Shown: piece after piece, positions 1,238 to 19,661 of the stretch | Layout of the letters: the number at the start of each line of letters is the position of its first letter | How positions within the stretch are numbered: the stretch's first letter is position 1 | Sequence record: SRR20825019_1182 | Strand: one strand, 5' to 3' | Length of the DNA stretch: 51,988 bases | The notes under the pieces: model-generated | What the model was told of the DNA's origin: nothing | The model's input: only the letters and a program-made list of their open reading frames with translations | Database searches by the model: none | Position numbers and translations under genes: made by a program

Positions 1238-3280
1238 TCAGAAATGTAAATCTACAACGCTTTCGCTTTCGCTTTCGCGGCTGCTTGTGTTTGAGCGGGT
1301 TGATCCGGTTGCGGAAGCATCTGGCCTGTCTTTCGGTTCTCCCGGTGGTGAGGGGGCTCTGTACACGGGCTGTCCAGGCGCTACCGCGGTTTCATCCATT
1401 TCTATAACAACACTGTCGCCGGCACCTGAATTCTCGGGCCTTCTACCGGATTCGGCGTTAAAGCCCTGCCCCGCGGCCATTGCAGGCGCTTCCATGTCGG
1501 CATCAGGCGCCGGAGCAGATGAAGTGGGACAGGGGGCTGTGAGGCATCCGAAGTAATCAGAAAGCGCATGACCCAAGGTAGAGACACCACTACGCATATG
1601 GGAAGCCGGGTTTCCATACCAGCTGTCATTGGCAGGCTGTGCATTGATCCTGATCCGCTCGGCGGCGGCTTGTCTCGCCTGATCGAGGTCATCCAACGCT
1701 TCGGAAAACAGCTCCGTGCCCGGTTTCATTTGAAAGATATGAACAAGTTTTTCCTGGAGCTCACCCAGTGCCGCCTCTACCTGCTTTTTTTCTTCCAGAG
1801 CGCGAGCAACGTCGGCTCCGGTCTGACTTAGATTTCTGGTGTAGCTTTGCTCGACCTTCGGTGGCCGGAGCGCCTTGCGCATATCCATCACGGCTTTCAT
1901 GGTGCCATGCATGGCTCCGTCGCGGCGTTCTTCATGCTCTGTTGCAGACTCGTCACATTTTTTCTGACCAGCCCACATGGCAGCCTCTTCAGAAACCCCC
2001 CTTGCAATACCGAGTAACAACTCCTGCGAAGCTTCGCTGCCGGTGAGGCTGCGATTGAGGATGAGTGATTTGCCGATCTGAGCAAGAGCTCCGGCGGGCG
2101 TCTTCGCGGCGGTCTTTACAGCTGCGCCCATACCGGAACTTGTATCCGTGAAAACCAACTTCGCCAGCAGATCGATCGTTGATTTCAAGAGCGAGCGGGC
2201 AACGAGTACAAACATCGGCATCAGCGCTTCTGTCGCACTCACATCCTCGCCATTATATGCTTTGGCTGCACCAATCGCGCCTCCCGCGGCAAGGCCGAGC
2301 ACAAGTGCACTGGACACACTTGCGACCGCTGAGTGAGGCGTTTTCTTGATGTTTTCACACTTGCTATCCAGCGCATAACGGTCGCTCTCGGGGGTTACAG
2401 CGGCGGCGGCTGAGGCATGTGTGGCGCGCGCTGTACGCTGTTCATAGACAGCCTCATTCAGGAAATCCGATACGAAGGACAGGAGTGTTAAAGCGGCATC
2501 TGCGGCGTATGCCATTGCGCTGGTTTGCGGGGAAACCAGATACTCGCTATGGGCGGGGAGGGAGCAGCTTTTATCCCCTTCAGCGCGCGTATTGTTGTGC
2601 AGAGTATTGCCCATAAGGTCTTCGCATTCAGTTTCCCGTTCTTGTACGCTGGCCTTCTGAATGCCGAGCCCTACCGCTATCGGGATCAACGCCAATAGAG
2701 AAGCATTCACGATGTGGTAGCGATTGGCGTGAACTTGCGGTATAAAGTCTCTCCAGTTGTTCGGCCATGGCCCGGATTGATATGACTCGGCCTTGGGTGT
2801 GGTGCGCTTGACCAGTTCCTCAACCACAAACCGGTCTTCTTCATTCAGCTTCTTGATCTGCTTTTCCAGAAACTCCTGCGCTCCTGCCAATTTATCGTGA
2901 TACTTTTTCGGCCCTAAGGCAGTTGCAAGTTCATCAAGAACCTTCTTGAGGTGCTGGCCCTCATCGCCCTCGAAAAAGTTCAGGCTTTCCTGCGCCGCGC
3001 GATGCCCCTTGATATTGTGCTGACCGAGAAGTGCGGAAAGGCTTTCCCTGTCGGGGGCTGGCAGGCCACTTGTCGACGTCGCCGATGAACCGCTTGCCTG
3101 ATGCCGGCTCTGGTTTGTGTTGCGCCGACGCAACCCGTCGGTACCACCACCATCAGCAGGCTGCATCTGGCGGAACTGATCTCTGGCTCGTGGCGGTCTT
3201 TTTGGTCCCGCGTCACCTGTCTCTGGCTGATGGTGAATGGAGTCGTGATGGTTTGGCGTCGTTGCAGAGTTCGTGTGCAT
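1238..3280 (-). CDS. Orphan 680-aa protein with disordered termini, ~4 hydrophobic segments and a coiled-coil-like region (effector/translocator-like)
   Basis: Long ORF with AAAGGA RBS; hydrophobic stretches at about aa 190-207, 255-274, 318-339 and 353-377; no Sec signal peptide; no family recognised. Confidence 0.8.
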   Translation of the reverse strand: MHTNSATTPNHHDSIHHQPETGDAGPKRPPRARDQFRQMQPADGGGTDGLRRRNTNQSRHQASGSSATSTSGLPAPDRESLSALLGQHNIKGHRAAQESLNFFEGDEGQHLKKVLDELATALGPKKYHDKLAGAQEFLEKQIKKLNEEDRFVVEELVKRTTPKAESYQSGPWPNNWRDFIPQVHANRYHIVNASLLALIPIAVGLGIQKASVQERETECEDLMGNTLHNNTRAEGDKSCSLPAHSEYLVSPQTSAMAYAADAALTLLSFVSDFLNEAVYEQRTARATHASAAAAVTPESDRYALDSKCENIKKTPHSAVASVSSALVLGLAAGGAIGAAKAYNGEDVSATEALMPMFVLVARSLLKSTIDLLAKLVFTDTSSGMGAAVKTAAKTPAGALAQIGKSLILNRSLTGSEASQELLLGIARGVSEEAAMWAGQKKCDESATEHEERRDGAMHGTMKAVMDMRKALRPPKVEQSYTRNLSQTGADVARALEEKKQVEAALGELQEKLVHIFQMKPGTELFSEALDDLDQARQAAAERIRINAQPANDSWYGNPASHMRSGVSTLGHALSDYFGCLTAPCPTSSAPAPDADMEAPAMAAGQGFNAESGRRPENSGAGDSVVIEMDETAVAPGQPVYRAPSPPGEPKDRPDASATGSTRSNTSSRESESESVVDLHF

Positions 3281-3289
3281 GGAGATCCA

Positions 3290-3930
3290 TCCTTTATAAC
3301 TGTTGATGCGTATTCAATATATGGAAATATCAGTCAAATATATTTTTAGTAATATTGTAATTTACATATTATATATAAATATATCTAATAGATTTTTATT
3401 ATAATTGTGACATAGATAAAATTTATATTGTTTTATATGTTTCGATAAGTGACTTTGCCGACTGATTTCCTCAAAAATAAATGCTGCATCCGCCAATGAT
3501 TTATTCGTTCGTTGTGTGATGGCGGCATTGGGAACCTGCCCCGCCTCTCGGGCGAGGCTGCGCAATGCGTAGGCGGGAAACTCATCGGCACTTTGCGTAC
3601 CTGAACCTCCAACCAGAAACAGCGCAGTGATGCGGGTGTCTGCAAAGTAACTGTGTCTTTTTAGATACAACCTGGGATTTTATCCATAAATGCGCCTGTT
3701 GGCTGTTTTGTGCCGAATGCTTTGATATCGGCGCACTTAATAAATACACAATTAAAACAATTAGATAATTTTATATATTGTACATATTTTTTATAATTTA
3801 ATAATATATTATATAATATAAATATATTGACGGACAAATACAATTTGTTATTCATTATTACTAGAGGTTATAGTTAACTATAGTAGTTAATTCTAATATG
3901 TAGGTGTATCAATATTGGAAATTTCTGAAA
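3290..3930. promoter_or_regulatory. AT-rich divergent promoter region (two AT blocks flanking a GC-normal core)
   Basis: About 3300-3480 and 3735-3925 are overwhelmingly A/T, between divergently oriented genes; contains the palindrome TATAGTTAACTATA at 3869-3882. Confidence 0.6.
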
Positions 3931-4060
3931 CGAAACCCGACGAAAATACAACCGATACGCGATTTCATCGAGTTTGACGGGTTGCGATCTGATGCATTGG
4001 CCTCCGCCGCTTGGCAGGGGCGAGCTTTCATGGGGGGCGGCGAAAGCCGGTTGATGCCGA

Positions 4061-7000
4061 ATGGAACCAGGGCGACTTACACGACAACTGATGCATTCAC
4101 CGGCAGTGAATTGGAGTGCTGCGTTGCCTGTGGCGAATGGAGATGAGAATAGTTCAGCCTGTCATGGGCCGCATGAAAGCAGAGCCGGGGTTGTTGTTTC
4201 TCGCCTTGCAAAGGTTACCAGGCTTCTTCTGGCGGTTATAACATGTGCTTTCTTTCTGGGTGCAGGCGCAACGCTTGCTGCACCGGGAAATCCGGGCGTG
4301 CCCTCAGCTCCGCAGGTATTGTTTGAGGAGGATTTCGAAAATGTTTCAAGTCCGACCGCTTTTGTCATGCTGCCGAATTATACCGGCACATCGGGGACAA
4401 CCTACACGGCAGATCAGCCATGGCTAGTGAGTTGCAACGGTATTCTCGTTGCTGCTTCGCAGTCTTCGTCAGACAGCCAAGGGGTCAGTGCCTGCTATGG
4501 AAGCGGCTCCTGGAATGGCGTTCGCGAACTCGCGCTGGGGATCGCCAATTTCGAAGGTTACACTGGCTCTGCAGCACAAGCGAGACGCTCTGTTGCCGCT
4601 TTTACAGCAGGCGATCCCGGCGCAAACCGCATTGAATTTGCGACCACAACAGATGTCAGCATTCCAGCGCCTCCAGGTGGTGCGCAGAGGTTTGTGTCTT
4701 TTCAGGTCGTCGTCGGGGCTCTCAGTTGTCATGCAGCCCATCCTCAATTGCAGTTTTATCTGGTCGATGGGCAGGGCAATGAGGTGCAGGCCGGTTCCAG
4801 GATTGATGGTTGTGGCGGTAAAAGTTCCGGGGGCAACTATGGCCGCTATGCCAGTGGCGGGATTTTGTTCTCAGGTTCAAGCCTTGGCATCATCATGCGC
4901 AACCAGCAGGGCAGTGGCTCGGGGAATGACCATGCCTTTGACAATATTGTTGTGCTTGATTCCACGCCACAGCTGGATAAAGCCTACGCCAACACGAGTG
5001 TTCCCGCCGGGCAGACCACCAACCTGGTTTTCACCATTACCAATACAAGCGAGCTCGGTAGCAAGCAGGGATGGGCATTTGAGGAAACGCTGCCCGCCGG
5101 TCTGACGGTTGCCGGAGCCCCCTCGAACACCTGTTCGGCCTCCGTTTCGGCCATTTCCAACTCTGACAAGGTTGTGGTTACCGCGGGGACAATCAACTCG
5201 AATGTTGCCTCATGCACGATTACGGTTCCGGTGAAGGCCTCTGCCGGCGGCACCTTTACGTCGATGGCGACATCAACCACCAATCTGAAAGCCATTCGGG
5301 CACCGGCCGATGCCGAAGTCACATTCTTCGAGCTCAATCTCGATGTTGCCAAGTCAGGTAGCCTGGTCGATACCAATAATAACGGCCGACCGGATGTGGG
5401 CGAGAAGATCGGCTACACGGTCACTGTGAGCAACAATATTGGTGTGAATGTCACCGGTGTTTCTGTTTCCGACAGCCTTCCCGGCGTCACTCTCTCCCCG
5501 GCGTCTCAGGATATTCCGGCAGGTCAGAGCAGGGCCTATACCGGCGAGTATGTCCTTCAGGCCGCCGATATTGATCGTGGTTATGTCGATAACACCGCAT
5601 CGGTCAGCGGAACTGCAAGCGGCGGTTCATCCGTCAGTGGCGATGGCGAAACCACTACGACCTTGCAGCGTGTGGCTGATTTTGCCGTCAGCAAGGCGGC
5701 AGCGGCCATACCCTCTCCCTTCTCCTATGGCGACCAGATCAACTATACGGTTGAAATTACCAATACCGGTAACGTTACCTTGAGTGGTGTGACGCCGAGC
5801 GACCCCTTTCTTGACACCGGCCTCACGCTGGTCTCGCCAACCGGCTTTTCAGGATCGCTGCCTGCTGGTGGAACGGTGGTATATTCGGGTGCCTACACGC
5901 CCAGTCAGGCGGAGATCAATAGCGGTTCCTATCTCAATAAAGCGACCGTTACCGCTACTCCTCCGTCCGGGGTTGGCCCGACGATTTCCAGAGAAGGTGA
6001 GGAAGTCACCGCCATTGCGGCGGACCCGTCAATGGCTGTCAGCAAGGTTTCGAAGATCATCGATGCCAACGGCAACGGGGTTCTCGATCCAAACGAAACG
6101 ATCAACTACACGATCAACATTGAAAACACGGGCAATGTCACGCTGACGAATGTGCAGCCAACGGATACACTAGAGACCAGCCCTCCGCAGACGCTGCCAT
6201 TGACACCAGGCGGTCCGGTTTCAATCGAACCGGGTATCGTTGAAGAGTTTACGGCGAGCTATACGCCCACGCAGGCAGATATTGATGCCGGTACGCTTGA
6301 CAACAGGGTTTCTGTCGCTGCCGACGGGCCAGGCGGACCTCTTTCGCCGGTGGAGCAAACCGAGACAACAACCATAACATCGTCAGGCGCGTTTGAAGTT
6401 GAAAAGACGGCAACACTGAGCCCCTCGGGGGCGACGTTCGCCGCTGGTGACCGGGTCAACTATCAGATTACAGTTACCAATACCGGTAATACAACTCTGA
6501 CCATTCCGGCAAATGCAGTGACCGATACGCTTGGCAACAGCCAGACCCTTACTGTTACGCCACCGGCCTCGACAACGATCCCACCCGGCAACAGCGCAGT
6601 ATTTACGGCCTTCTACGACACGCTGCAGGCGGACCTGGATAATCTGACGCTGAGCAACACGGCAGATGTCACGCTGAATCTCCCGGATAGTTCAACGGTC
6701 TCCGATACGGTTACAATTGACACAGCATTCCCGATTGCCGCCGTACTCGATTTCGAAAAACTGAGTATCTATCAGGATATTGACGGGACTCCCGGCCCAA
6801 GCGTCGGGGATCAGATTGACTATACTCTCAGAGCCCATAACAGGGGCAATGTCACGCTGACGAATGTCTTGCCGTCGGATCCGATGCTGGTCGCGGCCGG
6901 CGTGTCATTGACGCCAAGCACGGCACAGACGCTGGCTCCCGGAACGTCGGCAGATTTCACCGCCACATATGATCTTGTTCAGGCAGATGTTGATACGGGT

Positions 7001-10000
7001 TATGTGCTGAATACCGCGTCGGTGACGGGTGTTTCCCCCAACGGAACCACATTGAGCAGCGAAGAGACCAACAGCACGGACTCAGCCGGTGCCGTCTCCA
7101 TCGCCATGGAAAAGAGGGGTGTTCTGAACGACCTCAATGGGAACGGTTTTCCCGACGTGAACGAGACCATCGACTATACCGTCACAGTGCTGAACGACGG
7201 TGCCGCATCAGTCACGAATGTTTCTGCTTCCGATGAGACATATCCAGGCCTCGTCTTCAGCCCTGCGTCGGTTGCCTCACTCGCACCAAGTGCAACAGCG
7301 TCGTTCATGGCCAGCCTTACGCTGACCCAGGCCATGATTGATGCCGGGAGCGTGACGAACACCGCCAAGGCAACCGCCACGAGCACAAATGCCGGTGCTC
7401 CGACGATTACGGCGACAGACCAGACTTCCAACACGCTTGTCGCCAGTCCCCAATACACCTTTTCCAAGACAAGCGACTACGTTACCGGCGTAACGCCGCC
7501 TTATTCTGCCGGGGATGTGATCAACTACACTTTCACCTTTGAGAATACAGGCAATGTCACGCTGACGAATGTGAGTATTAGCGACCCGAAACTGGATTCC
7601 GGCTCGTTAACACCGACCTCTGTGCCCAGTATCGCTCCGGGCGGCAATCAGATCTTTACCGGCACGCATACCGTGACGCAGCAGGACATTGACGGTGGTT
7701 CCCTGCTCAACATCGCAACCGCCGAAGCCACGCCTTTGGCGGGTGGTCCGTCGATCAGTAAAAAAAGCAACGGCGTGTCAGTGTCTTTCGCGGAGGCCAG
7801 TCAGCTGGATGTCAGCAAGACTGTCAGTTTTGTTGGTTCGGCCAGTGCCAGCAATTTCAACCTCGGAGACAAGCTGATCTACACGATCACAGTGTCCAAT
7901 AACGGTAACACCTCGATCACTGACATTGCGGTTGAGGACAAGATTGCGGGCATTGTTCTTCAGCCGGACCCATCAAATACCGATCCGTTGCTGCCCGGCG
8001 ATACCAACACCTACACGGCCGAATATACACCGACCCTGGCCGACATCAATGTCGGCACTTTGGTCAATGAAGCGGTTGCGACCGCAGAGACTGTCGGCAA
8101 GGCGACGGCCATAAGTGCGAGTGGGCAACAGACGACGAACTTCACGCCGAACGCCGATCTCACCGTCGTGAAAACGGCCACTTTCGACAGCGGACGTCTG
8201 GATCCCGGCGATGTGATTGAATTTACAGTCGTCGCCACCAATACGGGGAATGTGACGTTGACTGGCGTCACGGTCACGGACCCAATGCCGGGACTGGTCC
8301 TGTCGCCTGTCGATCCGTCGTTCTCGGGAACACTCGCACCAAGTGACAGCATTGCCTATGCCGGGACATACACCCTGCTGGTATCGGACATCAATTCCGG
8401 GCAACTCAGCAATACCGCCAGCGCGTCCGGCGATTTGCCGAATGGCGGCGGAACAATACCGGCCCAGCCCAGCAATCCGGCAGTTGTCACCTTCTCAAGC
8501 TATCCCGATATGGACGTCGAGAAGACCAGCGTTCTTAACGACAGTAAAGGCAATGGTCTCTATGATGTCTTGGAGACGATTGATTACACGGTGCGTGTCA
8601 CCAACAAGGGCAATGTGACGCTGGATGGTGTTTTGCCAACCGACACATTGCAGCGTAACGACGGTACCACCGAAACGCTGACACTTTCGCCGGCAACTGC
8701 CCAGTCTATCGGTCCCGGTGAGTACAGGGATTTCACGACTTCCTATCAGATAACACAGACCGACCTTGATGCCGGTGGCATCTGGAATGAAGCCACAGCG
8801 ACAGGCACACCACCTGCTATCAGCGGTTCACCGGCGATAACGCTGGCAGACCAGACCATGCCGAGCGTTGCCAACAACCAGCCCCGGCTTTCCGCCACCC
8901 TGAACGGCGTACTTGATGACGCAAATCAGAATGGCGTGGGTGATGTTGGCGAAACCGTTAACTTCGAAATGGTGGTCACGAATACAGGCAACTCGACGCT
9001 GACGAATGTGCGCGCTGAAGAGCTGCTACCCGGCGTTACCCTGACGACGAGCGATCCAACCACGCTTGCGCCGGGCGAAAGCCTGACATTTTTCGGCAGT
9101 TATGATCTGACAATCGAAGATTATGAAAGTAACGCGCTTGAAAATACGGCACGTGCGCTCGGCGATACAGGTTATGGCGAAGCCTATACAAGTGACGATG
9201 CTCTGGCGATCGTCAGCTGGAACACGCCATCTGTTCTGATTGCTGAAAAAACGGCCCTGCTGATTGATATCGATAATAGTGGAACGGCGACGGCAGGCGA
9301 CCAGATCAAATATGTGATCACCGTGACCAATGACGGAGGCCAGTCGCTTACCGATGTGACGCCTGTTGATGATGGTGTCGTTCTGCCGGATGACAGTGCA
9401 GGCACTGGTACGATGTCAGCCTTCACGCCGGCCACTGCCTCGCTTGAGGCCAATGAAAATACTGAATTCACGGCGCTTTATACCATCAGCGAGCAGGATT
9501 TCAGTATCGCGGTTGGTGATGAGGTGGGGATCACCAATACGGCATCGGCGGTTGCCGCCGCCGGTCTTCAGGTCCTGACGGCGGCAGCAAGCTCTGCTTC
9601 TGTGAAGATTGATGCGGTTCAGCCCGGCGATATTTCCATTACCAAAGTGGCTGCAACACCGCAGATCCGTCGTGGTGAAAAAGCACAGTTCACGATTACC
9701 GTGATCAACAATACGGATCACAAGGTTGCCAACATCAATATTCGTGACCGTATTCCCAGTGGCTTCCGTTATGTCGAGGGTTCTGCATCGATCAATGGGG
9801 CGGTTGTTGAGCCTCTGGTCTACAGCCGGGACGTCCTCTTCGAGGATGTTTCCGTTGACGCTGACAGCAAAACCTACATCCGCCTTGCCATGACAGCGCT
9901 GAGTACGCTGGAACCCGGAACCTATCAGAACACCGCATATGCGACGGATCGTTTCGGAGCCACACTTGCTCCCAAGGCTGTGGCCGAGATCACGATTATG

Positions 10001-10591
10001 GTGGACCCCGTCTTTGACTGCGGTGATCTGATAGGCCGTGCTTTTGATGATCAGAACCGCAATGGGTATCACGATGCCGGTGAACCCGGACTTCCCGGTG
10101 TGCGCGTGGCTACCGTGAACGGTCTTCTGGTGACGACCGATGAGTTTGGTCGCTTTCATGTCGCCTGCGCGGCGCTTCCCGACAATCGCATCGGCTCCAA
10201 CTTCATCATGAAGCTGGATGAGCGGACCTTGCCGAGCGGCTACAGCGTCACCACCGAAAATCCGCGTGTTGTGCGGCTGACAGCAGGCAAGATGACCAAG
10301 CTGAACTTCGGTGCCTCAATCGGTCGGATTGTCAGTCTGGATCTGACTGACAGCTCCTTCATCGCCGATGAAACAGCACTGAAACCAGGCTGGTTGGCTG
10401 GTCTTGATCAGGTCATCAAAATTCTCGCGACGGAACCGTCGATCCTGAAAATCAATTATTACGGCGATCAGCTCGGCACGTTGGCACGCGAAAGATTGCG
10501 GGAGGTTTCCAGAGAAGTCCGGCGCCGTTGGGAGGTGGGCAGAGCGCCTTATCCCCTTGAAATCAGTACCCAGCTGGAGGCAGGCAAATGA
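4061..10591 (+). CDS. Giant surface protein/adhesin: signal peptide, N-terminal tip domain, ~14 DUF11-like Ig repeats, C-terminal SdrD-B-like module
   Basis: Signal-like segment RLAKVTRLLLAVITCAFFLGAGATLA; repeats of K..G(D/E).I.YT..V.N.GNVTLT.V...D...NTA; C-terminal GRAFDDQNRNGYHDAGEPGLPGVRV; exact start uncertain. Confidence 0.85.
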   Translation: MEPGRLTRQLMHSPAVNWSAALPVANGDENSSACHGPHESRAGVVVSRLAKVTRLLLAVITCAFFLGAGATLAAPGNPGVPSAPQVLFEEDFENVSSPTAFVMLPNYTGTSGTTYTADQPWLVSCNGILVAASQSSSDSQGVSACYGSGSWNGVRELALGIANFEGYTGSAAQARRSVAAFTAGDPGANRIEFATTTDVSIPAPPGGAQRFVSFQVVVGALSCHAAHPQLQFYLVDGQGNEVQAGSRIDGCGGKSSGGNYGRYASGGILFSGSSLGIIMRNQQGSGSGNDHAFDNIVVLDSTPQLDKAYANTSVPAGQTTNLVFTITNTSELGSKQGWAFEETLPAGLTVAGAPSNTCSASVSAISNSDKVVVTAGTINSNVASCTITVPVKASAGGTFTSMATSTTNLKAIRAPADAEVTFFELNLDVAKSGSLVDTNNNGRPDVGEKIGYTVTVSNNIGVNVTGVSVSDSLPGVTLSPASQDIPAGQSRAYTGEYVLQAADIDRGYVDNTASVSGTASGGSSVSGDGETTTTLQRVADFAVSKAAAAIPSPFSYGDQINYTVEITNTGNVTLSGVTPSDPFLDTGLTLVSPTGFSGSLPAGGTVVYSGAYTPSQAEINSGSYLNKATVTATPPSGVGPTISREGEEVTAIAADPSMAVSKVSKIIDANGNGVLDPNETINYTINIENTGNVTLTNVQPTDTLETSPPQTLPLTPGGPVSIEPGIVEEFTASYTPTQADIDAGTLDNRVSVAADGPGGPLSPVEQTETTTITSSGAFEVEKTATLSPSGATFAAGDRVNYQITVTNTGNTTLTIPANAVTDTLGNSQTLTVTPPASTTIPPGNSAVFTAFYDTLQADLDNLTLSNTADVTLNLPDSSTVSDTVTIDTAFPIAAVLDFEKLSIYQDIDGTPGPSVGDQIDYTLRAHNRGNVTLTNVLPSDPMLVAAGVSLTPSTAQTLAPGTSADFTATYDLVQADVDTGYVLNTASVTGVSPNGTTLSSEETNSTDSAGAVSIAMEKRGVLNDLNGNGFPDVNETIDYTVTVLNDGAASVTNVSASDETYPGLVFSPASVASLAPSATASFMASLTLTQAMIDAGSVTNTAKATATSTNAGAPTITATDQTSNTLVASPQYTFSKTSDYVTGVTPPYSAGDVINYTFTFENTGNVTLTNVSISDPKLDSGSLTPTSVPSIAPGGNQIFTGTHTVTQQDIDGGSLLNIATAEATPLAGGPSISKKSNGVSVSFAEASQLDVSKTVSFVGSASASNFNLGDKLIYTITVSNNGNTSITDIAVEDKIAGIVLQPDPSNTDPLLPGDTNTYTAEYTPTLADINVGTLVNEAVATAETVGKATAISASGQQTTNFTPNADLTVVKTATFDSGRLDPGDVIEFTVVATNTGNVTLTGVTVTDPMPGLVLSPVDPSFSGTLAPSDSIAYAGTYTLLVSDINSGQLSNTASASGDLPNGGGTIPAQPSNPAVVTFSSYPDMDVEKTSVLNDSKGNGLYDVLETIDYTVRVTNKGNVTLDGVLPTDTLQRNDGTTETLTLSPATAQSIGPGEYRDFTTSYQITQTDLDAGGIWNEATATGTPPAISGSPAITLADQTMPSVANNQPRLSATLNGVLDDANQNGVGDVGETVNFEMVVTNTGNSTLTNVRAEELLPGVTLTTSDPTTLAPGESLTFFGSYDLTIEDYESNALENTARALGDTGYGEAYTSDDALAIVSWNTPSVLIAEKTALLIDIDNSGTATAGDQIKYVITVTNDGGQSLTDVTPVDDGVVLPDDSAGTGTMSAFTPATASLEANENTEFTALYTISEQDFSIAVGDEVGITNTASAVAAAGLQVLTAAASSASVKIDAVQPGDISITKVAATPQIRRGEKAQFTITVINNTDHKVANINIRDRIPSGFRYVEGSASINGAVVEPLVYSRDVLFEDVSVDADSKTYIRLAMTALSTLEPGTYQNTAYATDRFGATLAPKAVAEITIMVDPVFDCGDLIGRAFDDQNRNGYHDAGEPGLPGVRVATVNGLLVTTDEFGRFHVACAALPDNRIGSNFIMKLDERTLPSGYSVTTENPRVVRLTAGKMTKLNFGASIGRIVSLDLTDSSFIADETALKPGWLAGLDQVIKILATEPSILKINYYGDQLGTLARERLREVSREVRRRWEVGRAPYPLEISTQLEAGK
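6131..7572 (+). repeat. Three identical 23-nt intragenic repeats GGCAATGTCACGCTGACGAATGT
   Basis: Copies at 6131-6153, 6845-6867 and 7550-7572, each encoding GNVTLTNV. Confidence 0.9.
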
Positions 10592-13500
10592 GCGTCTTCA
10601 AGGTGGCTGCCATGAGCCGGAAAAATGGTGCCTCGATCAGGTCTATTCTGAAAAACAGTGTGTTTGCAACGGGTCTCTGTGCGGCGGCCGTGGCTTCTCA
10701 GGCTTCTTCAGCCTATGCCGAGGAACCGGCGCAGTTCGCGATTTCGGTCGATGGTGAGCCGCTGGTCATCGACAATCTGCCCGCCGCTCAGGTTACCCCT
10801 GAAAAGCTGGAAGCAGTGAAAGCACGTGCAGAAAATCGCGCCAGAAGAACCGATGTGGATTTGAGCGCGGTGGATATTCAGGTGAAGTTCGACGGTCTCG
10901 ATACCGAGCCTGTTCTAAATGTGGTGACGGATGATGTCGAACGGTCTTTCGAGGCGGGCGACACAGTTAACTTCTACACTTCAAGTAACTATCCCGCATA
11001 TATTGAGCGGGCCGAAATCCGGGTTTTCGGAGAGGACGAAAACTTCACGCCTGAAAGCGTTCCCCTGGCCGTGGTGCCGGTTCTGATCAACTCTGGTGTT
11101 GAATGGGACGTGCCGGCTTTGCAAAATGCTGATGGTCCATTGACCTATGTCCTGCGTGTTTATGGCAAGAACGGCCTTTATGATGAAACGCGCTCGCGGT
11201 TGATCCGGCTGAAGGCTGCCGAGCAGCTTTCCGGCCAGTTGGATGATGATAACCTTGCCAACAGGATTTCCGCTGACGAAGCGCTCAGTGCAACGCAGAT
11301 TGGTGTTGGAAATATTCAGGGTGCGCTGGATATGTCGGAAGACTATGCATTGCGCCGGAATATTCCCATCGTTGGTGGCACAGTGACTGTCTATGGCCGC
11401 AGCGTACCCGATGGCTACACAGTGCGTACCCTCGGAGATGAGGTTGAGCTTGATGATGACGGTAACTTCGTCATTCAGCGCATTATTCCGAATGGCGATC
11501 AATCTGTTGATGTGCTGGTTGACAAGCCCGATGGCGGGCGGGCCGTCGAGTTTACCCGTGAAATCAATATTCCCGATAATGAATGGTTCTATATGGGGCT
11601 TGCCGATATTACCATCGGCCAGCGCACCGGATCGGAAAATATCGAGGAGGTGCGCAATGATGAGTATGACGAGGTCTACTCCAACGGGCGTGTGGCGTTT
11701 TATCTCAAAGGCAAGATCAAGGGTGAGTATATCCTGACTGCGGCCCTCGATACCGAGGAGGACGATCTTGCCAATCTGTTTCCCGGACTCGATGAACGGA
11801 ACGCGCGGCAATTGCTGAAAGAACTGAACGAGGATGACTATTATCCCGTTTATGGTGATGATTCCGTAGCAATCGATGATGCGCCGACCAGCGGAAAATT
11901 TTATGTGCGTTTGCAGCACAACGACAGCCACATCATGTGGGGTGATTACCGGGTTAAAATAGACGGAACCGAGCTGCAGCGGACGAATCGGGCGCTTTAC
12001 GGAGCCCAGGCGGTTTATCAGCCCGACAAGGCAACCTCTTTCGGTGCCCCGCAAACGAGGCTCCAGGTTTATGGTGCGCAACCCGACACGCTGACCGCTG
12101 TGGACCAGTTCCTGGGAACCGGTGGCTCAGTCTACTTCCTCAACCACTCAGACCTGACTGCGGACACCGAGACTCTGACCCTGGAAGTGCGGGACTCTGA
12201 TACCGGAGTCGTCCTTAGTTCTTCGACGCTAATTTATGGCGAAGACTATAATATCGATTATATTCAGGGTGTTATCATTCTGACAGACCCTTTGATGTCG
12301 CAGACGGGAACGAACTCGCCTGTGCGCTTTGGCGCCATCGGTGGCAATGACGTCTACCTCGTTGCAGAATATGATTACACGCCGATTGCCGAAGATATTG
12401 ACGGTTATGTCTATGGAGGCCGCGCCGAGCAGTGGTTGGGCGATCATGTGCGCGTTGGCGTCACTGGCTCTTCAGACAGTACCGGTGAGGGTGCAACAGA
12501 TGCCTATGGTGGTGATATCCGGCTGCGTTATTCCGACAACACCTTCCTCGATGCGGAGATTGCGACAACCAATGGTTCGCAAACCGGCCAGTCGATATCT
12601 ATGGATGGCGGGCTGACGCATACCGATCTGAACACGCGCAATATCGATAAATCTGCGCTGGGCTGGCGGCTGGCTGGCCAAGTCGATCTGGCGGATATCA
12701 GCGAAAATGCCGATGGTGTCATTCAGGGATACTTTGAGACAAAGCAAGCCGGTTTCACCTCATTGACGGAAGATCTCAATGCCCCGGAAACTCAATGGGG
12801 TATCAGCGCAGAAACCTCCATTTCGGATGCAATGGCACTCGCACTGTTCTACGACTATTATGACAGCGAGGGCTATTATAACGCTGATTCCAACTCGTTC
12901 GTGACAGGCAGCAGCAAGCAGCAGGGAGAGATGAACCTCACGCGGCAGTTCAATGAGCGCTGGTCGGTCTCGGCGGGTCTTGGCTACACGCTCGAACATC
13001 GGCCATCAGAAACCGCTACCAATGCCTATGGCACCAATGGTGAGCGCGTCGATCTCGGTGTTCGGGTAGAATACACCCTCGATGATGGCGAAAGTACTGT
13101 TTATGTGTTCGGGCAAACCACGGTTTACGAAGAAGGAAACATCGACCGTGGCGACCGGGCGGGCGTGGGCACAAGCTACCAGATTACCGAGACACTCGGC
13201 ATTGACGGAGAAATCTCATACGGCACCACTGGATGGGGCGGCCTTGCCGGTGCTTCCTACCAGCCGAATGAAACGGACCGCTATTATGTCAACTACGTTA
13301 TTGATCCGGACCGGGCCTATGACTGGAACCAGACTTACAATCTTTACGGTCAGGATCTTGGAACGGTTGTTGTCGGTGCCGAAAAGGAGATCAACGACAT
13401 GTGGTCGGTCTATGCCGAAAACAACTATGATCTCTACGGTGAGCGCAACACCATGTCACGCACCTATGGGGTCACGTTTTCACCCGATGCCGTATGGACC

Positions 13501-14352
13501 ATGGATGCAGCTTATGAAGGTGGCCAGGTTGACGATGACACCATTGATCCGGCAACCGGTCTGAAAAATTCAGATTTTGACCGAAATTCCTTTTCTCTAG
13601 CCTTCAATTATGATGATGACGAGGAAAATGGCGTTGTCGCCAGACTGCGTGGCGAGGCACGCTTTGAAGATTCCGAGGATGGCACCGGCGACATCAACAG
13701 CTATCTTGTTTCCGGTTTTTACAACTACCGGGCCAATGATGACTGGCGGCTTCTGACAAGCATTGATGCTGTGTTTGAAGACGCCGGACCAGACGCCACA
13801 CTCGCGATCAATGACTATATCGAAGCGGTTGCAGGCTGGGCCTATCGTCCTGCGGACAATGACCGTTTCAATGCGCTCTTCCGCTATAACTTTCTCTATG
13901 ACATGCCAAGCGCTGACAGCTACTACTATTCAGACAATAACGAACCAGGACAGCGCTCGCACATTCTGTCGGCGGATTTTATTTATGACCTCACCCCGCA
14001 ACTCAGCATTGGCGCCAAGTATGGCTTTCGCCTGAGCGAGATTAAACAACAGCTGAATGACCCGGAACTGGGTCGCTACTACTCCGGTTGGGAAAATGCC
14101 AATGCCCATCTCGGCGTTATCCGGGCCGATATTCATGTGGTCAAGAAGTGGGACTTCCTCACTGAAGGCAGGGTTCTCTATACGCCCACATCACAAACCA
14201 CCGATTTCGGAGCTCTGGCAGGCGTTTACCGGCATTTCGGAAATAACATCAAAGTCGGTGGTGGGTATAACTTCGGTAGCTTCTCCGATGATCTGCGTGA
14301 TCAGACCTATGATGACCGTGGTTGGTTTATCAATATCATCGGCAAGATCTGA
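10588..14352 (+). CDS. Large predicted outer-membrane beta-barrel protein with N-terminal soluble domains, partner of the repeat protein
   Basis: ATGA overlap with the upstream stop; signal peptide ending AYA|EE; long run of amphipathic, aromatic-rich beta-strands; C-terminus GWFINIIGKI; alternative start 10612. Confidence 0.8.
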   Translation: MSVFKVAAMSRKNGASIRSILKNSVFATGLCAAAVASQASSAYAEEPAQFAISVDGEPLVIDNLPAAQVTPEKLEAVKARAENRARRTDVDLSAVDIQVKFDGLDTEPVLNVVTDDVERSFEAGDTVNFYTSSNYPAYIERAEIRVFGEDENFTPESVPLAVVPVLINSGVEWDVPALQNADGPLTYVLRVYGKNGLYDETRSRLIRLKAAEQLSGQLDDDNLANRISADEALSATQIGVGNIQGALDMSEDYALRRNIPIVGGTVTVYGRSVPDGYTVRTLGDEVELDDDGNFVIQRIIPNGDQSVDVLVDKPDGGRAVEFTREINIPDNEWFYMGLADITIGQRTGSENIEEVRNDEYDEVYSNGRVAFYLKGKIKGEYILTAALDTEEDDLANLFPGLDERNARQLLKELNEDDYYPVYGDDSVAIDDAPTSGKFYVRLQHNDSHIMWGDYRVKIDGTELQRTNRALYGAQAVYQPDKATSFGAPQTRLQVYGAQPDTLTAVDQFLGTGGSVYFLNHSDLTADTETLTLEVRDSDTGVVLSSSTLIYGEDYNIDYIQGVIILTDPLMSQTGTNSPVRFGAIGGNDVYLVAEYDYTPIAEDIDGYVYGGRAEQWLGDHVRVGVTGSSDSTGEGATDAYGGDIRLRYSDNTFLDAEIATTNGSQTGQSISMDGGLTHTDLNTRNIDKSALGWRLAGQVDLADISENADGVIQGYFETKQAGFTSLTEDLNAPETQWGISAETSISDAMALALFYDYYDSEGYYNADSNSFVTGSSKQQGEMNLTRQFNERWSVSAGLGYTLEHRPSETATNAYGTNGERVDLGVRVEYTLDDGESTVYVFGQTTVYEEGNIDRGDRAGVGTSYQITETLGIDGEISYGTTGWGGLAGASYQPNETDRYYVNYVIDPDRAYDWNQTYNLYGQDLGTVVVGAEKEINDMWSVYAENNYDLYGERNTMSRTYGVTFSPDAVWTMDAAYEGGQVDDDTIDPATGLKNSDFDRNSFSLAFNYDDDEENGVVARLRGEARFEDSEDGTGDINSYLVSGFYNYRANDDWRLLTSIDAVFEDAGPDATLAINDYIEAVAGWAYRPADNDRFNALFRYNFLYDMPSADSYYYSDNNEPGQRSHILSADFIYDLTPQLSIGAKYGFRLSEIKQQLNDPELGRYYSGWENANAHLGVIRADIHVVKKWDFLTEGRVLYTPTSQTTDFGALAGVYRHFGNNIKVGGGYNFGSFSDDLRDQTYDDRGWFINIIGKI

Positions 14353-14525
14353 TGTCTGTGCGGTCTTGTTCGAAACCTTACGCTGGCCTGCCCGGATGCG
14401 GTTTCTCATCGTAAAGCCGCCGCGTGATCGACCAGAAACCTCCACATATTCCAGGCGACCGAGTTTTGCCATGCGGCCCTCCGTTCGGCGATGCTGCGTG
14501 GCGTTTTCGGGTTCCAATGTCGCGG

Positions 14526-15233
14526 TTACGAGGAAGTTCTGGCTGCCCACAATGCTCCGCGTCGTATGATTTCGGTGACCTGTGGGGTCTGGAGGTCTGC
14601 AAGTTCGTGACCGATCGAGCAGTAGAAGACACGGCCTTTGTCCCAGCGGCGTTTCCAGACAACGGGGATCACGGTTCCTTCGATCCACCAGAGGTGGTCG
14701 CCGGAAAAGGTTGTGGTCGCCAGCACCTCATTCGAAGGGTCGGTGAGCATGTAATATTGCTCGGAGCGCAACCGGAAGCTTTTGATGCCTTCAACGATCG
14801 GGTCGGATGGCCTGCAAATGGTGACGTCGTAGTCTATATAGTCCTCGCGCGGCTGAAGATTGTCCGGCCAGCCAGGCGGATGGGCAACGAACTGCCCGCC
14901 GATCAGAAAGTGATAGGTTGGACGGTCGCGAAATGCGTCGCCCATATGGCCGTGCCATCCGGCAATGCCGCAGCCCTCGCCAATCAGCTTCAGAAGACCG
15001 TCTTCCTGCGGTTTGGTCATGGTGCCGAACTCTTCCCGGTGGCCGGAGCGGGCAGAAGACCAGATCGGCGTGATGAGATCGACGCCGGAAAGTTCGTCCG
15101 GGCGTTCCAGCGGTTCCATTGTGTCATAAACATCGACGCTGAAGCCGTTTTTCTTCAGCAGGTCGGCATACCAGTCGGAAAATGCGCTCGGCGCGTGGCC
15201 TTCCCAGCCACCGACAAACAGGACCGCTTTCAT
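14526..15233 (-). CDS. ThuA-like domain protein (class I glutamine amidotransferase-like fold)
   Basis: GGWEGH, GWHG, GGQFVAHP, EQYY and GRVFYCSIGH motifs; overlaps the upstream gene by 4 nt. Confidence 0.8.
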   Translation of the reverse strand: MKAVLFVGGWEGHAPSAFSDWYADLLKKNGFSVDVYDTMEPLERPDELSGVDLITPIWSSARSGHREEFGTMTKPQEDGLLKLIGEGCGIAGWHGHMGDAFRDRPTYHFLIGGQFVAHPPGWPDNLQPREDYIDYDVTICRPSDPIVEGIKSFRLRSEQYYMLTDPSNEVLATTTFSGDHLWWIEGTVIPVVWKRRWDKGRVFYCSIGHELADLQTPQVTEIIRRGALWAARTSS

Positions 15234-16099
15234 GTCTTTTCCTTTCGCATGAAATTCAGGATGGAGGCCATGTCGCGAGCGCCGTAACCGGCGCTTTCGG
15301 CCTCTTTCAGCTTTTCGAGTGTCACCAGCCCCTGCGGTATTGCGGTTCCCAACTGGCGCGCAAGCTCGGCCGTAGCCGTCATGTCCTTGCGGGCGAGTGC
15401 GACCGTAAACGTCACCTCATGGGCGGCTTCATCGAGATAGAGCGGGCGGCGGTATTTCAGCATCGGGGCGGCAGCGGCGGAGGCCTCGATCACGTCGAAG
15501 GCCACCTCTGGCTTGATGCCCGCCGCCTCTGCCAGCGTCATCGCTTCGGCGAGCGTCTGGTTGATCCCGTGAATGAGTGAATTCACCGAGAGTTTCATCA
15601 CGGCGCCACGGCCCGGCTCCCCGAGAAAGATTGTCTGTTTGCCGAGGATGTCAAAGATCGGGGCAAGGGGGGGGCCGGTCGTCTCATCGCAACCGGCCAT
15701 GATCAGCAATGTGGCCTGCCGGGCGGCTTGTGTCGCACCGGAAACCGGTGCGTCGATCACCGTCGCGCCTTGAGGTGCGGCATCTGCGAGTTTTGCGATG
15801 TGGCCGGGACTCATCGTGCCCATCTCGATGAAAATGCATGCGCGGTTGCCGCTGAACAAACCATCATCGCCCAGATGAACACCTGCAGAGGCATCATCAT
15901 CGGCAAGCATGGTGATGACAATGTCGACTCTGTCTGCAAGCTGTCGCGGTGTTTGTACGGGTGACGCTCCGGTTTCCGCAGCAAAGCTGTCTGCCTTTGC
16001 AGCCGAACGATTCCAGACTGTCATGTCGTGGCCAGCGCGAACGAGATTGTGCGCCATGGCTTCACCCATCCGGCCAAGTCCTGCAAATCCGATCCGCAT
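15230..16099 (-). CDS. NAD(P)-dependent beta-hydroxyacid dehydrogenase (3-hydroxyisobutyrate/tartronate semialdehyde reductase family)
   Basis: GFAGLGRMG Rossmann motif, DAPVSG, catalytic Lys in MKLSVN. Confidence 0.9.
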   Translation of the reverse strand: MRIGFAGLGRMGEAMAHNLVRAGHDMTVWNRSAAKADSFAAETGASPVQTPRQLADRVDIVITMLADDDASAGVHLGDDGLFSGNRACIFIEMGTMSPGHIAKLADAAPQGATVIDAPVSGATQAARQATLLIMAGCDETTGPPLAPIFDILGKQTIFLGEPGRGAVMKLSVNSLIHGINQTLAEAMTLAEAAGIKPEVAFDVIEASAAAAPMLKYRRPLYLDEAAHEVTFTVALARKDMTATAELARQLGTAIPQGLVTLEKLKEAESAGYGARDMASILNFMRKEKT

Positions 16100-17610
16100 C
16101 AGCTTGCCTTTTCGGTTTCAAGGCCGGAAATCGCCTGGATAAGCTTGTCCTCGGAAACCTCTTCGGCTGTGAAGATGTTCGTGATCCGGCCACTGTACAT
16201 GGCAACGATCCGGTCGGAGACATGCAGTACCTCGGGCATTTCCGAACTGATGACGATGACCGCATAGCCCTGACGGGCGAGCGCCCGGATCAGGTTATGG
16301 ATCTCGGACTTCGAGCCGACATCAATCCCGCGCGTCGGTTCGTCGACAATCAGGATATCGGGATGCATGGAGAGCCATTTACCGATGACAATCTTTTGCT
16401 GGTTGCCGCCGGAAAGGTTGCCTGCCAGTTGCCGCCAGCCGGGTGTGCGGATATCCAGCTTGTCACGGTACTGATCAAAAATGGCGACTTCCGCGCCATC
16501 AGAGACAAATGGCCCGGCGGTAAGATCACCCACCTGTGGTAGGGTCATGTTATCCCGGCAGTTCATGCCGAGCACCAGCCCCTGGGTCTTGCGATCTTCC
16601 GGCACCAGCGAGATACCGTTCCTGATCGCGTCTTCCGGTGAATGCAGCCGGACCGGCTTGCCCTGTAGTAAAATCCGGCCGCCACTTGGCTCCCTGAGCC
16701 CGAAAAGTGTTTCCGCGATTTCGGTGCGGCCCGCACCGACAAGACCGTAGAAGCCAACGACCTCGCCCTTGCGGACGTCGAAGCTGATGTCCCGGTAGAG
16801 ACCATTGCAGGAGAGGTTTTCGACCGAAAGGGCAACCTCACCCAACTCCGTTTGCTCGTGATTGCGGGTCAGATCGAGCTTGCGCCCGATCATCAACTGA
16901 GTGATTTCGTCTTCGTCGGTCTCTGCGGTGATCAGCGTGCCCCGGCATTCACCATCGCGCAGAACGGTGATGCGGTCGGTGATGCTGAAGATTTCTTCCA
17001 TACGGTGGGAAATGTAGATGATCCCGACACCGCGCGTTTTCAGATCGGCAATCACATCGAAAAGCACGACCTTTTCCGCGTCTGTCAGGGATGCGGTGGG
17101 TTCGTCGAAGATCACGGCTTTTGCTTCGACGGTCAGTGCGCGGGCAATCTCCACCATCTGCTGATTGGCAATGGAAAGAACGCCGACGCGGGTTGTCGGT
17201 GTGAAGCCTGCCTTCAGCTTATCGAGAATGGACTGTGTTTTTGCATACAGCGTCGTCCAATCGACGATGCCGAACTGCTTCAGCGGCAACGCACCGAGAT
17301 AGATGTTTTCCGCGACGGTCAGTTCCTGTGCCAGGCTCAGTTCCTGATGGATGAAGACCACGCCCTTCGACTTTGCCTGCAGCGGCGAGGTCATGACGGT
17401 GGGGATCTCGTCGATCAGTATCCGCCCTTCATTGGGCTGATGAATGCCGCCGAGCACCTTCATCAGCGTCGACTTGCCCGCGCCGTTTTCGCCGACAAGG
17501 GCGTGAACCTCGCCCGGCCGGATTTCGAGCGACACGCCATCCAGCGCACGAACACCCGGAAAGGTCTTGACGATATTGTCCAGTCGTAGTGCTGGTTTGA
17601 TATCACTCAT
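16099..17610 (-). CDS. Sugar ABC transporter ATP-binding protein (RbsA/MglA type)
   Basis: GENGAGKST Walker A, DEPT twice, LSGGNQQK signature. Confidence 0.95.
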   Translation of the reverse strand: MSDIKPALRLDNIVKTFPGVRALDGVSLEIRPGEVHALVGENGAGKSTLMKVLGGIHQPNEGRILIDEIPTVMTSPLQAKSKGVVFIHQELSLAQELTVAENIYLGALPLKQFGIVDWTTLYAKTQSILDKLKAGFTPTTRVGVLSIANQQMVEIARALTVEAKAVIFDEPTASLTDAEKVVLFDVIADLKTRGVGIIYISHRMEEIFSITDRITVLRDGECRGTLITAETDEDEITQLMIGRKLDLTRNHEQTELGEVALSVENLSCNGLYRDISFDVRKGEVVGFYGLVGAGRTEIAETLFGLREPSGGRILLQGKPVRLHSPEDAIRNGISLVPEDRKTQGLVLGMNCRDNMTLPQVGDLTAGPFVSDGAEVAIFDQYRDKLDIRTPGWRQLAGNLSGGNQQKIVIGKWLSMHPDILIVDEPTRGIDVGSKSEIHNLIRALARQGYAVIVISSEMPEVLHVSDRIVAMYSGRITNIFTAEEVSEDKLIQAISGLETEKAS

Positions 17611-18608
17611 ATCCTGAGCTCCCCTCTGCCTTTGCGGTTCAGTTGACGGTCGAGAAACAGAACGGCGATCAGAATGAGGCCGATGACCAGATTGACCGTT
17701 TCGGTATCAGCGCCAATATAGCCGAGACCCTTGCGCAGCAGCTGGATGGCGATGACGCCACCGAAAGTGGAAAGGATCGATCCCGAGCCGCCTGCAAGCT
17801 TGGTGCCGCCGAGAACAACGGCGGTGATGGCCCATAATTCGTAAAGCTCACCGTCATTGGGGTTGACCGAGCCGCTTTCGGAATAAAACACCACCGCGCT
17901 CAGTGCTGCGAGAAAGCCGATCAGGATGAAATTGCGCAGGAAATGCGGGCCGACCCGAATACCGGCATTGATCGCCGCTTCGCGATTGTCGCCGATGGCA
18001 TAAGCGTTGCGACCATGTACCGTCTTTGTCATCACCAGCCAGATGATGGCGGTGACGGCGAGGAAAAACCAGCTGGCCGTATGGATCCCGAGAAACTGTG
18101 CTTCGGCGAAGTCAACCAGGCTCCAGTTCAGATGCGAGGTCGGGTTCTCGCCGTTATACATGAACACCAGACCGCGATAACCGAGCATGGCGCCAAGCGT
18201 GACGATGAAGGCATCGACGCCGGTCTTCCAGACGATCAGCCCGTTCAGTCCACCCAGAATCGCGCCGGTCAGAAGTGCCAGCGCCCAGGAAACCGGGATC
18301 ACCCAGTCGCCGAGCCCGGAAAAGACAGACCAGGTCATCGAATCCAGCATAACGATCCCGGCGAGTGCGAAGGTCGCGCCGACGGACAGGTCGATATTGC
18401 CGTTGATCATGATCACTGTCATGCCGATGGCGATGATGCCGATCGGTGCCGACTGCTTGAGCAGCAGCAGCATATTGTCGAAGCCCATAAAAGCGGTGTC
18501 GGAAAGTGAGAGAAAATGCCCCGCGACCGAAAAGAAGATCAGTTCGACGAGGATAAAACCCCAGATCGCGCCCTGTTTGATGTATTTGGTATAGCTTTGG
18601 CTGGTCAT
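17607..18608 (-). CDS. Sugar ABC transporter permease (RbsC type)
   Basis: GNIDLSVG, GRNAYAIGDNREAA and AVVLGG motifs; start MTSQ at 18608 after GAGGGGG. Confidence 0.9.
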   Translation of the reverse strand: MTSQSYTKYIKQGAIWGFILVELIFFSVAGHFLSLSDTAFMGFDNMLLLLKQSAPIGIIAIGMTVIMINGNIDLSVGATFALAGIVMLDSMTWSVFSGLGDWVIPVSWALALLTGAILGGLNGLIVWKTGVDAFIVTLGAMLGYRGLVFMYNGENPTSHLNWSLVDFAEAQFLGIHTASWFFLAVTAIIWLVMTKTVHGRNAYAIGDNREAAINAGIRVGPHFLRNFILIGFLAALSAVVFYSESGSVNPNDGELYELWAITAVVLGGTKLAGGSGSILSTFGGVIAIQLLRKGLGYIGADTETVNLVIGLILIAVLFLDRQLNRKGRGELRI

Positions 18609-18618
18609 GATCACCCCC

Positions 18619-19593: not shown

Positions 19594-19661
19594 CAGCTCC
19601 TCCCAAAGCTCTGGTTTCAGGCAGTTTCGGGCCTGCTCGCCCTGTTTTGGAGACAACGGCC

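Follow-up and report, generated by a model that had tools for sequence, protein, structure and literature searches.

A repeat adhesin and its neighbouring giant beta-barrel: a candidate autotransporter-like display system, encoded as a gene pair or as a fusion

The stretch of DNA considered here (sequence record SRR20825019_1182; 51,988 nucleotides, hereafter the window) carries on its plus strand two overlapping open reading frames (ORFs). The first, P0001 (4061-10591), encodes a repeat protein of up to 2176 amino acids (aa) and is called below the passenger; the second, P0002 (10588-14352), encodes a predicted outer-membrane protein of 1254 aa and is called its partner. A survey of related loci supports the conclusion that passenger and partner form a conserved functional unit. 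The best reading of their architecture is an autotransporter-like display system, split into two genes or fused into one, which uses an unrelated giant barrel. The original prediction, made from the letters of the window, had proposed such a two-gene unit with the C-terminus of the adhesin as coupling element. A defined C-terminal coupling module, natural fusions of passenger, module and barrel, and the occurrence of OmpA domains at the junction are new.

The two ORFs, their lengths and their ATGA overlap are exactly as originally described: the stop codon TGA of P0001 (10589-10591) overlaps the ATG of P0002 (10588-10590). A GGAGG motif (10576-10580) stands 7 nt 5′ of this ATG and, together with the overlap (10588-10591), was read as a translational coupling site (10576-10591). 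Both ORFs are real genes, because many homologues were found. P0002 has 309 homologues at E ≤ 1e-3 among 7999 candidates scored. Among cluster representatives (1.84 billion searched), 3225 were retrieved at E ≤ 1e-3 and 847 at E ≤ 1e-30. When genomes were scanned, one per species, with an alignment as query, at least 586 relatives were confirmed among the first 600 pattern matches; the same kind of scan with the single P0002 sequence as query gave no relative. Among the matches listed, Martelella supplies the nearest ones to the partner (58-89% identity), and many Hyphomicrobiales come next (41-51%). Public names of the family are inconsistent and include 'TonB-dependent receptor', 'OmpA family protein', 'outer membrane protein transport protein' and 'hypothetical protein'.

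Co-inheritance of passenger and partner

The linkage of the two genes was surveyed in 80 fetched loci (numbered with L below). Of these, 74 had at least 1.5 kb of upstream DNA and could be assessed, and six were too short. It was observed that in 60 of the 74 assessable loci (60 of the 80 fetched) a same-strand ORF directly upstream of the partner gene ends like the passenger of the window. The last ~136 aa of these 60 upstream ORFs match P0001 at 46-78% identity. In 59 upstream ORFs a C-terminal module of about 325 aa, hereafter the C-module, aligns from end to end (40.9-65.8% identity over ~308-332 aligned residues). The 4-base overlap seen in the window recurs in 28 of the 60 paired loci under a longest-ORF rule. 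Moreover, in an independent set, the C-module lies directly upstream, on the same strand, in all 21 plasmid or chromid records where the partner is covered to at least 80%. These records come from Alphaproteobacteria (Phyllobacterium, Sinorhizobium, Devosia, Croceibacterium, Sulfitobacter, Roseovarius, Loktanella, Paracoccus; Rhodobacterales are represented), from Betaproteobacteria (Eleftheria, Ralstonia) and from Gammaproteobacteria (Vibrio campbellii).

Clustering of the ORFs over the 80 loci showed that only the passenger and partner families are conserved, the next family being present in 20 loci. The two-gene unit, for which a gene-neighbourhood survey had been suggested as a check, is thus borne out: the genes are conserved together, and no third conserved gene accompanies them. 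A single adjacent cargo gene is found in 59 of the 60 paired loci. The remaining arrangement is that of Pelagibacterium xiamenense (L050:5698-9782), where two tandem passengers (704 and 657 aa), one with a Calx-beta and the other with a glycine-rich domain, precede one barrel gene; both end in the C-module. In the closest relative, Martelella mangrovi (L001:9932-13759), the passenger has only 1243 aa and the barrel gene seems to be broken into a 1062-aa ORF plus another fragment (13235-13759), which could reflect a frameshift, decay or a sequencing error. On plasmid p4 of Acinetobacter haemolyticus (L083), a gene for a 360-aa 'OmpA family protein' stands between two genes of a fragmented DUF11 cluster; the match to the barrel is only partial (aa 366-571), and the locus may be a distant or decayed variant.

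It might be argued that the two genes are functionally unrelated and adjacent by chance. The loci with the partner alone, detailed below, and nothing else would speak for such a coincidence, whose probability is practically nil: the co-linearity extends across three proteobacterial classes, the 4-base overlap is shared, and fusions of the two proteins arose repeatedly.

C-terminal module, fusions and barrel

In P0001, the C-module corresponds to aa 1852-2176 (9614-10588), as delimited by alignment and AlphaFold2. It is the sole conserved part of the passengers and is present on every partner-linked passenger, so that the coupling through the adhesin C-terminus foreseen at the outset is supported by the 60 loci and the 21 replicons counted above. 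An AlphaFold2 model computed with an alignment of 57 sequences (predicted local distance difference test, pLDDT, 87.4) splits the module into three domains. The first is the last DUF11 domain of the passenger (9629-9946). The second is an SdrD_B-like domain (~10013-10315), in which two cysteines, C1987 and C2036, are invariant in 57 of the 57 C-modules. The third is a terminal domain of about 90 aa (10319-10588) with the predicted order beta-alpha-beta-alpha-beta.

The terminal domain does not belong to PF00691, but probably represents a degenerate domain of OmpA-like type. When aligned with the family's own OmpA domains using hhalign, it gave a probability of 78.7% (E 1.7e-5) in the expected register. 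The OmpA-type arginine is invariant; the aspartate position of the peptidoglycan motif is not conserved. Its look-alikes in a language-model search (Atlas) are all OmpA clusters with a score of 0.89, to be taken as a lead only, and its predicted topology fits the OmpA-like fold. None of the 57 C-modules has a Pfam match in this domain at E ≤ 1, and its profile searched against the sequences of the PDB returned only noise (E ≥ 2.1). A fold search with the model of the whole module is dominated by the two Ig-like (immunoglobulin-like) domains, which recall Gram-positive pilins and SdrD (template-modelling, TM, score ≤ 0.41), and leaves the terminal domain unread. A co-fold of P0002 aa 45-316 with a 332-aa C-module scored 0.00, below the mark; run with the proteins' own alignments unused and with no controls, it gives no verdict.

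A second line of evidence comes from long relatives of the partner. Of the 150 best representatives, 33 exceed 1450 aa (18 exceed 2100 aa, with a maximum of 6889 aa), and all of them carry the partner module at their C-terminus. The C-module of the passenger was detected by BLAST in 22 of the 33, always N-terminal to the barrel module. In these proteins the match to the partner begins at about residue 50-100, i.e., without its signal peptide. The 13 junctions inspected contain no hydrophobic signal-like segment (maximum KD15 ≤ 1.27). Many of the 13 proteins have a signal-like segment at their N-terminus; some, such as P0147, P0155 and P0222, do not. Judged from their sequences, these proteins look like true fusions that keep the order of the gene pair.

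True OmpA domains (PF00691), in one to three copies, occur in 27 of 278 family proteins. In some proteins they come immediately after the signal peptide of the partner itself, as in Eleftheria terrae; in fusions they separate the C-module from the partner module. OmpA domains bind peptidoglycan; the junction between C-module and barrel therefore lies in the periplasm. In P0127, a fusion of 1725 aa, the SdrD_B-like domain is joined directly to the first barrel strand, and both the terminal OmpA-like domain and the N-terminal domains of the partner are missing. This single case suggests that the OmpA-like domain and the partner N-domains exist to hold the split proteins together.

The partner itself begins with a Sec-type signal peptide (aa 1-44, 10588-10719; ..SSAYA/EEP). 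Its AlphaFold2 model, computed with a 66-sequence alignment, has a pLDDT of 81.8 and a predicted TM score (pTM) of 0.79. A soluble N-terminal region (aa 45-316, 10720-11535; model numbering + 54), presumably periplasmic, would contain a helix (aa 71-91), a first beta-sandwich (aa 96-206), a disordered linker (aa 213-246) and a second beta-domain (aa 254-312). The remainder (aa 318-1254, 11539-14349; about 940 aa), delimited by the model and by fold search, is predicted to be a giant beta-barrel region with 34-43 long antiparallel strands as counted from DSSP elements, far above any barrel of 22-26 strands. Two inserts interrupt it, one helical (~aa 389-437) and one made of a small beta element (~aa 510-587). 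IPxxDWFYVGLADLT, the family's best conserved motif, corresponds to the first barrel strand (aa ~332-343); the last strand lies at aa ~1244-1253, and the C-terminal end ..NIIGKI (..GKF in relatives) resembles a beta-signal.

Pfam and NCBIfam returned nothing above noise for P0002 (no plug at E ≤ 0.1 in Pfam), and no PDB sequence matched it at E ≤ 10. Plug, TonB_dep_Rec, POTRA, usher and autotransporter domains were not found in any of 36 family members scanned with Pfam at E ≤ 1, which gave only scattered weak matches to generic barrel families. A fold search of the PDB with the P0002 model also returned only generic large barrels (TM ≤ 0.27): SlpA/SDBC (7zgx, 8agd, 8ae1; TMq 0.19-0.21, up to 0.25), Cir, BtuB or FecA (best 0.24-0.27), LptD, MtrB and SprA (8gl6; TMq 0.13-0.14). 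The Atlas clusters resembling the partner are named 'OmpA family' or 'MotB family'. As modelled, P0002 resembles no solved barrel. The initial description of the partner as devoid of POTRA, TonB plug and usher signature stands, and the model does not fold as a TonB receptor, a TpsB protein or an usher.

These results bear on the public annotation. If the partner were a TonB-dependent receptor, the repeat protein could be envisaged as a surface accessory capturing the substrate. Many homologues bear that name at NCBI, and in one record exbB-exbD-tonB lie just downstream. Such an assignment is highly improbable. Plug and TonB_dep_Rec are missing in 36 of 36 members even at E ≤ 1, there is no NCBIfam match, Cir and BtuB are matched in fold only at TMt 0.24-0.27, and members of the same family are named otherwise in other records. 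As ExbBD-TonB are adjacent in 1 of the 80 loci, a functional linkage was rejected and the arrangement ascribed to coincidence. With no plug, TonB box, POTRA or usher signature, the label 'TonB-dependent receptor' is unsupported.

The passenger gene encodes a Sec-exported, fibrillar adhesin-like protein of at most 2176 aa. Its start is uncertain within 4061-4130 (2153-2176 aa), since no in-frame ATG, GTG or TTG occurs between codon 24 and the signal core. A TTG at 4124 is preceded at 7 nt by GGAG, and every possible start leaves 30-50 aa before that core. Related passengers mostly have ordinary N-terminal signal peptides. The signal-peptide region of P0001 (~aa 47-74, 4199-4282), read from the translation with no predictor, shows a Sec-type hydrophobic core and an A-x-A-type site (..GATLA/AP; ~aa 53-74). 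It is followed by a variable tip (4283-5278), made of a head without family (aa 75-302) and a DUF7933 domain (aa 303-406), and by a stalk of 11-12 tandem DUF7507/DUF11 Ig-like repeats (~aa 420-1850, 5318-9610), named 'CLIPPER_2' and 'CLIPPER' in the passages available of a recent preprint (10.1101/2025.04.25.650565). In detail, Pfam recognises DUF7507 and DUF11 in 12 stretches each, a single DUF7933 and, weakly, SdrD_B (aa 1993-2028); NCBIfam recognises TIGR01451 only, in 13 stretches. With its signal region, tandem stalk and conserved terminal module, P0001 would thus qualify as a fibrillar adhesin of the CLIPPER/DUF11 type. The original portrait of a Sec-type repeat protein lacking an autotransporter barrel, a two-partner secretion (TPS) domain, RTX repeats and a lipobox agrees with these data: Pfam finds none of these three families, and the lone cysteine of the signal region lies inside the hydrophobic core.

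Outside the C-module, passengers diverge widely. The N-terminal 420 aa of P0001 have a relative in 1 of the 80 loci, passenger lengths range from 393 to 3275 aa, and their contents include DUF11, DUF7507, SdrD_B, CarboxypepD_reg, Calx-beta, a glycine-rich domain and CopC-like pieces.

Proposed topology and relation to known systems

The order passenger, C-module, periplasmic junction, barrel is that of a classical autotransporter. In the model that we favour, both proteins would enter the periplasm via Sec. P0002 would form a giant barrel of roughly 40 strands in the outer membrane and leave its N-terminal helix and both beta-sandwiches in the periplasm. P0001 would be a variable tip on a stalk of CLIPPER Ig-like domains, putatively of the isopeptide type, linked to the barrel by the C-module. 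The last DUF11 domain and the SdrD_B-like domain, with its putative disulphide, would occupy or cap the lumen. The terminal OmpA-like domain would remain periplasmic, where the cell wall or the partner N-domains would hold it as a stopper or anchor, and the rest of the stalk would project from the cell. From this architecture we infer that the barrel exports and anchors the adhesin, and likewise the surface location of the stalk, the contacts between domains and retention rather than release. To the central proposition, in which the stalk crosses the outer membrane through the partner lumen with the DUF11 and SdrD_B-like domains in or at that lumen and the OmpA-like domain below it, we attach a probability of roughly 0.55. 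In such an arrangement, the helical linker and 12-strand barrel of autotransporters would be replaced by two Ig-like domains and a barrel several-fold larger.

Several observations weigh against this model. Firstly, the OmpA-like assignment relies on three weak-to-moderate lines (hhalign 78.7%, Atlas 0.89 and topology), and the aspartate is not conserved. Secondly, the number of wall strands is an estimate (34-43 DSSP elements), and the strand region of P0002 may form two barrels in one chain or fill its own lumen. Thirdly, the direct joining of SdrD_B-like domain and barrel was seen once only. Fourthly, no energy source for export is encoded nearby. Finally, the partner occurs without an adjacent passenger in 14 of the 74 assessable loci, which indicates that the barrel can persist alone. 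Twelve of the 14 belong to Nitratireductor/Chelativorans (L038, L040, L043, L053, L055-L057, L059, L060, L065, L067, L068) and stand beside a divergent biotin carboxylase gene. In a FastTree phylogeny of 77 partner sequences (supports not examined), which omitted four loci with partner ORFs below 1000 aa, L060 among them, 11 of these 12 lone barrels form one clade. The lone paralogues keep their N-terminal domains, and some of the genomes also have a paired copy (L023 and L043 come from one strain). The two exceptions that remain are L080, where a truncated gene lies next to hipA, and L034, a short contig.

Two further models may be considered. In the first, the partner would be a wide secretion channel and the C-module an export signal, a folded and cross-linked cargo being released or handed on as with SprA of type IX secretion. 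The very large strand count, a module conserved on otherwise diverse cargo, the two tandem cargo genes with module before one barrel in L050 and the presence of SprA among the weak fold matches (TMq 0.14) are all compatible with this view. However, covalent fusion of cargo and barrel makes release impossible without proteolysis, 59 of the 60 paired loci have just one cargo gene beside the barrel, conserved motor or ring components are absent from the surroundings in the 80 loci, and the SprA match is no better than that to any large barrel. We regard a channel of this kind as unlikely.

In the second, a giant outer-membrane protein linked to peptidoglycan would, together with a periplasmic or membrane-lining repeat protein, tether or scaffold the envelope, by analogy with OmpA or with Deinococcus SlpA. 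OmpA domains are common in the family, the Atlas clusters bear the names of OmpA and MotB families, the best, though weak, fold matches include SlpA/SDBC (7zgx, 8agd, 8ae1), and SlpA is described, in the passages available of the source, as a connector of outer membrane and cell wall (PMC9388160). A stalk of at least 12 Ig-like domains with a variable tip, reaching thousands of residues and differing strongly between close relatives, is nevertheless typical of a surface adhesin rather than of a periplasmic scaffold, and neither Pfam nor NCBIfam finds an OmpA domain in the partner of the window. Such a tether would be about as improbable as the secretion channel.

Returning to display through the lumen, the closest parallels are the type Va and Vb systems, where a Sec-exported passenger also has a dedicated outer-membrane barrel, on the same chain or in an adjacent gene, with no ATPase or inner-membrane component alongside. 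In contrast, P0002 resembles neither the 12-strand autotransporter domain nor the 16-strand Omp85/TpsB barrel and has no POTRA, and its barrel of about 940 aa has roughly 40 predicted strands. The link is a folded C-terminal module of ~325 aa, instead of an alpha-helical linker or an N-terminal TPS domain. Consistently, the 12-strand domain PF03797 of type Va is absent from P0001 and from the fused relatives scanned, and neither the TPS domain nor the POTRA-Omp85 combination of type Vb has a Pfam match in P0001, P0002 or 36 partner homologues. The initial placing of the pair outside type V therefore holds as regards membership, the barrel being unrelated, but not as regards the principle inferred here, a Sec passenger with its own barrel, which is type V-like. 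The inverse autotransporters (intimin/invasin, type Ve) likewise combine an Ig-like passenger, one barrel and a periplasmic wall-binding domain. Here, however, the passenger is N-terminal, i.e., of opposite polarity, the wall binder would be of the OmpA type and not LysM, and the barrel is unrelated, Pfam having returned no inverse-autotransporter family.

Giant adhesins of the LapA kind (type I), which stay lodged in their TolC-like channel, do without a Sec signal, depend on an ABC exporter plus a membrane fusion protein, and carry their stopper at the N-terminus. The pair would share with them, under the topology proposed above, a giant repeat adhesin held at the surface by a folded terminal domain stuck in an outer-membrane channel. 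It differs by its Sec signal and by the absence of exporter genes: no RTX family was found, no exporter is adjacent, and the only ABC system of the neighbourhood is an importer on the other strand. As for chaperone-usher systems, there is no PF00577 match, no neighbouring chaperone and no third conserved gene.

Type IX secretion also uses a very large barrel and places a C-terminal beta-sandwich module on diverse cargo. Moreover, according to one article, cargo and dedicated barrel stand side by side there too, PorP-like anchor barrels lying beside type B cargo genes (PMC9143113). There is however no sequence relation and no specific fold relation (SprA, TMq 0.13-0.14), no Pfam match to Por_Secre_tail, the type B domain or SprA/Sov, no conserved PorK/L/M/N-type gene nearby, and the taxa here are Proteobacteria, not Bacteroidota. 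SlpA resembles P0002 in having an N-terminal wall-binding region, a helix and an unusually large barrel. As described in the passages available, it is a trimer whose chains combine an SLH domain and a long coiled coil with 30 strands (PMC9388160); the fold match is low (TMq 0.19-0.21) and SlpA has no linked repeat passenger. With TonB receptors, P0002 shares only the condition of a large outer-membrane beta-barrel: it lacks plug, TonB box and the 22-strand PF00593 domain, its N-region consists of a helix and two beta-sandwiches, and the fold match is generic.

Finally, a stalk of the same type as in the passenger occurs in CLIPPER (DUF11) fibrillar adhesins, for instance B9T28_05395 of Acinetobacter silvestris; what the present case adds is the partner barrel and the fusions. 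In the passages available of the preprint on these domains (10.1101/2025.04.25.650565), CLIPPER domains are the stalks of cell-surface fibrillar adhesins, and a drawing of one such adhesin from a Gram-negative bacterium includes an 'OmpA-like anchoring domain'; the terms 'barrel', 'secret' and 'outer membrane' are absent from the passages searched.

Surroundings of the pair and wider meaning

Upstream of the passenger gene, the spacer 3280-3900 is very AT-rich and contains repeated TATA-like stretches as well as clustered promoter-like hexamers. The G+C content is 0.479 in 2001-4000 vs 0.53-0.61 elsewhere in the window. Five sigma-70-like hexamer pairs, identified as consensus matches only, fall on the plus strand in 3752-3874, and 18 such sites were counted in 3300-15300 vs 9.4 ± 2.5 in shuffled sequences. 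The region 3752-3874 is a possible promoter or regulatory region of the pair; the spacer may mark the edge of an acquired island, or a regulated or silenced promoter. A terminator scan found 12 candidates vs 10.7 expected, not above chance. Across the spacer, divergent from the adhesin gene, a 680-aa ORF (1238-3280, minus strand) has charged, low-complexity ends and an Ala/Leu-rich hydrophobic middle.

On the 3′ side of P0002, a 287-aa ORF without family (14424-15287, plus strand) is followed by a dehydrogenase gene. The 287-aa ORF shares 58 nt with this convergent ORF (15230-16099) and is perhaps no gene. Farther on, the opposite strand carries an operon unrelated to the pair (16099-21592), with genes for a periplasmic binding protein, an ATPase, two permeases and an SDR dehydrogenase. 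It encodes an ABC importer of the sugar type that depends on a binding protein, and no type I exporter. No chaperone, usher, TolC-like or exporter gene was seen among 14 flanking ORFs scanned, as expected from the earlier reading of the neighbourhood. The ORFs 540-1085, 1238-3280, 3362-3670 and 14424-15287 were excluded as parts of the system: Pfam and NCBIfam assign them to no family, and they have no relative in the 80 loci.

Full-text searches, whose coverage stops short of paywalled literature and supplements, found no published description of the pair. The family is not named in the passages searched of a multi-barrel paper (10.1101/2021.02.17.431615) and of a strand-counting preprint (10.64898/2026.03.07.710327), whose supplements may list it. 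Predicted 38-strand barrels are mentioned for other organisms, without functional study, in the passages available of two sources (10.1101/2022.10.09.511469; PMC9388160). The pair is widespread, undescribed in the literature searched, and its partner is misannotated as 'TonB-dependent receptor', a systematic error which the present analysis would correct.

DUF11/CLIPPER adhesins are common in Gram-negative bacteria, and their route across the outer membrane is undescribed in the papers searched. The pair offers a testable candidate answer, namely a dedicated barrel of unprecedented predicted size, marked by the C-module of its cargo, and it supplies a sequence signature by which surface proteins can be predicted. 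If the count of about 40 strands is true, the barrel is larger than that of SprA, which has 36, and how the barrel-assembly machinery builds it becomes a question. More tentatively, it may be imagined that these systems constitute a separate class of export and display, a 'giant-barrel autotransporter' of about 40 strands, in which a folded, cross-linked stalk would cross the membrane without ATP and be held by a lumen-filling C-module and an OmpA-like stopper. Such a class, which we consider possible but rather doubtful at this stage, would explain how CLIPPER-type adhesins arrive at the cell surface in Proteobacteria, Myxococcota and others.

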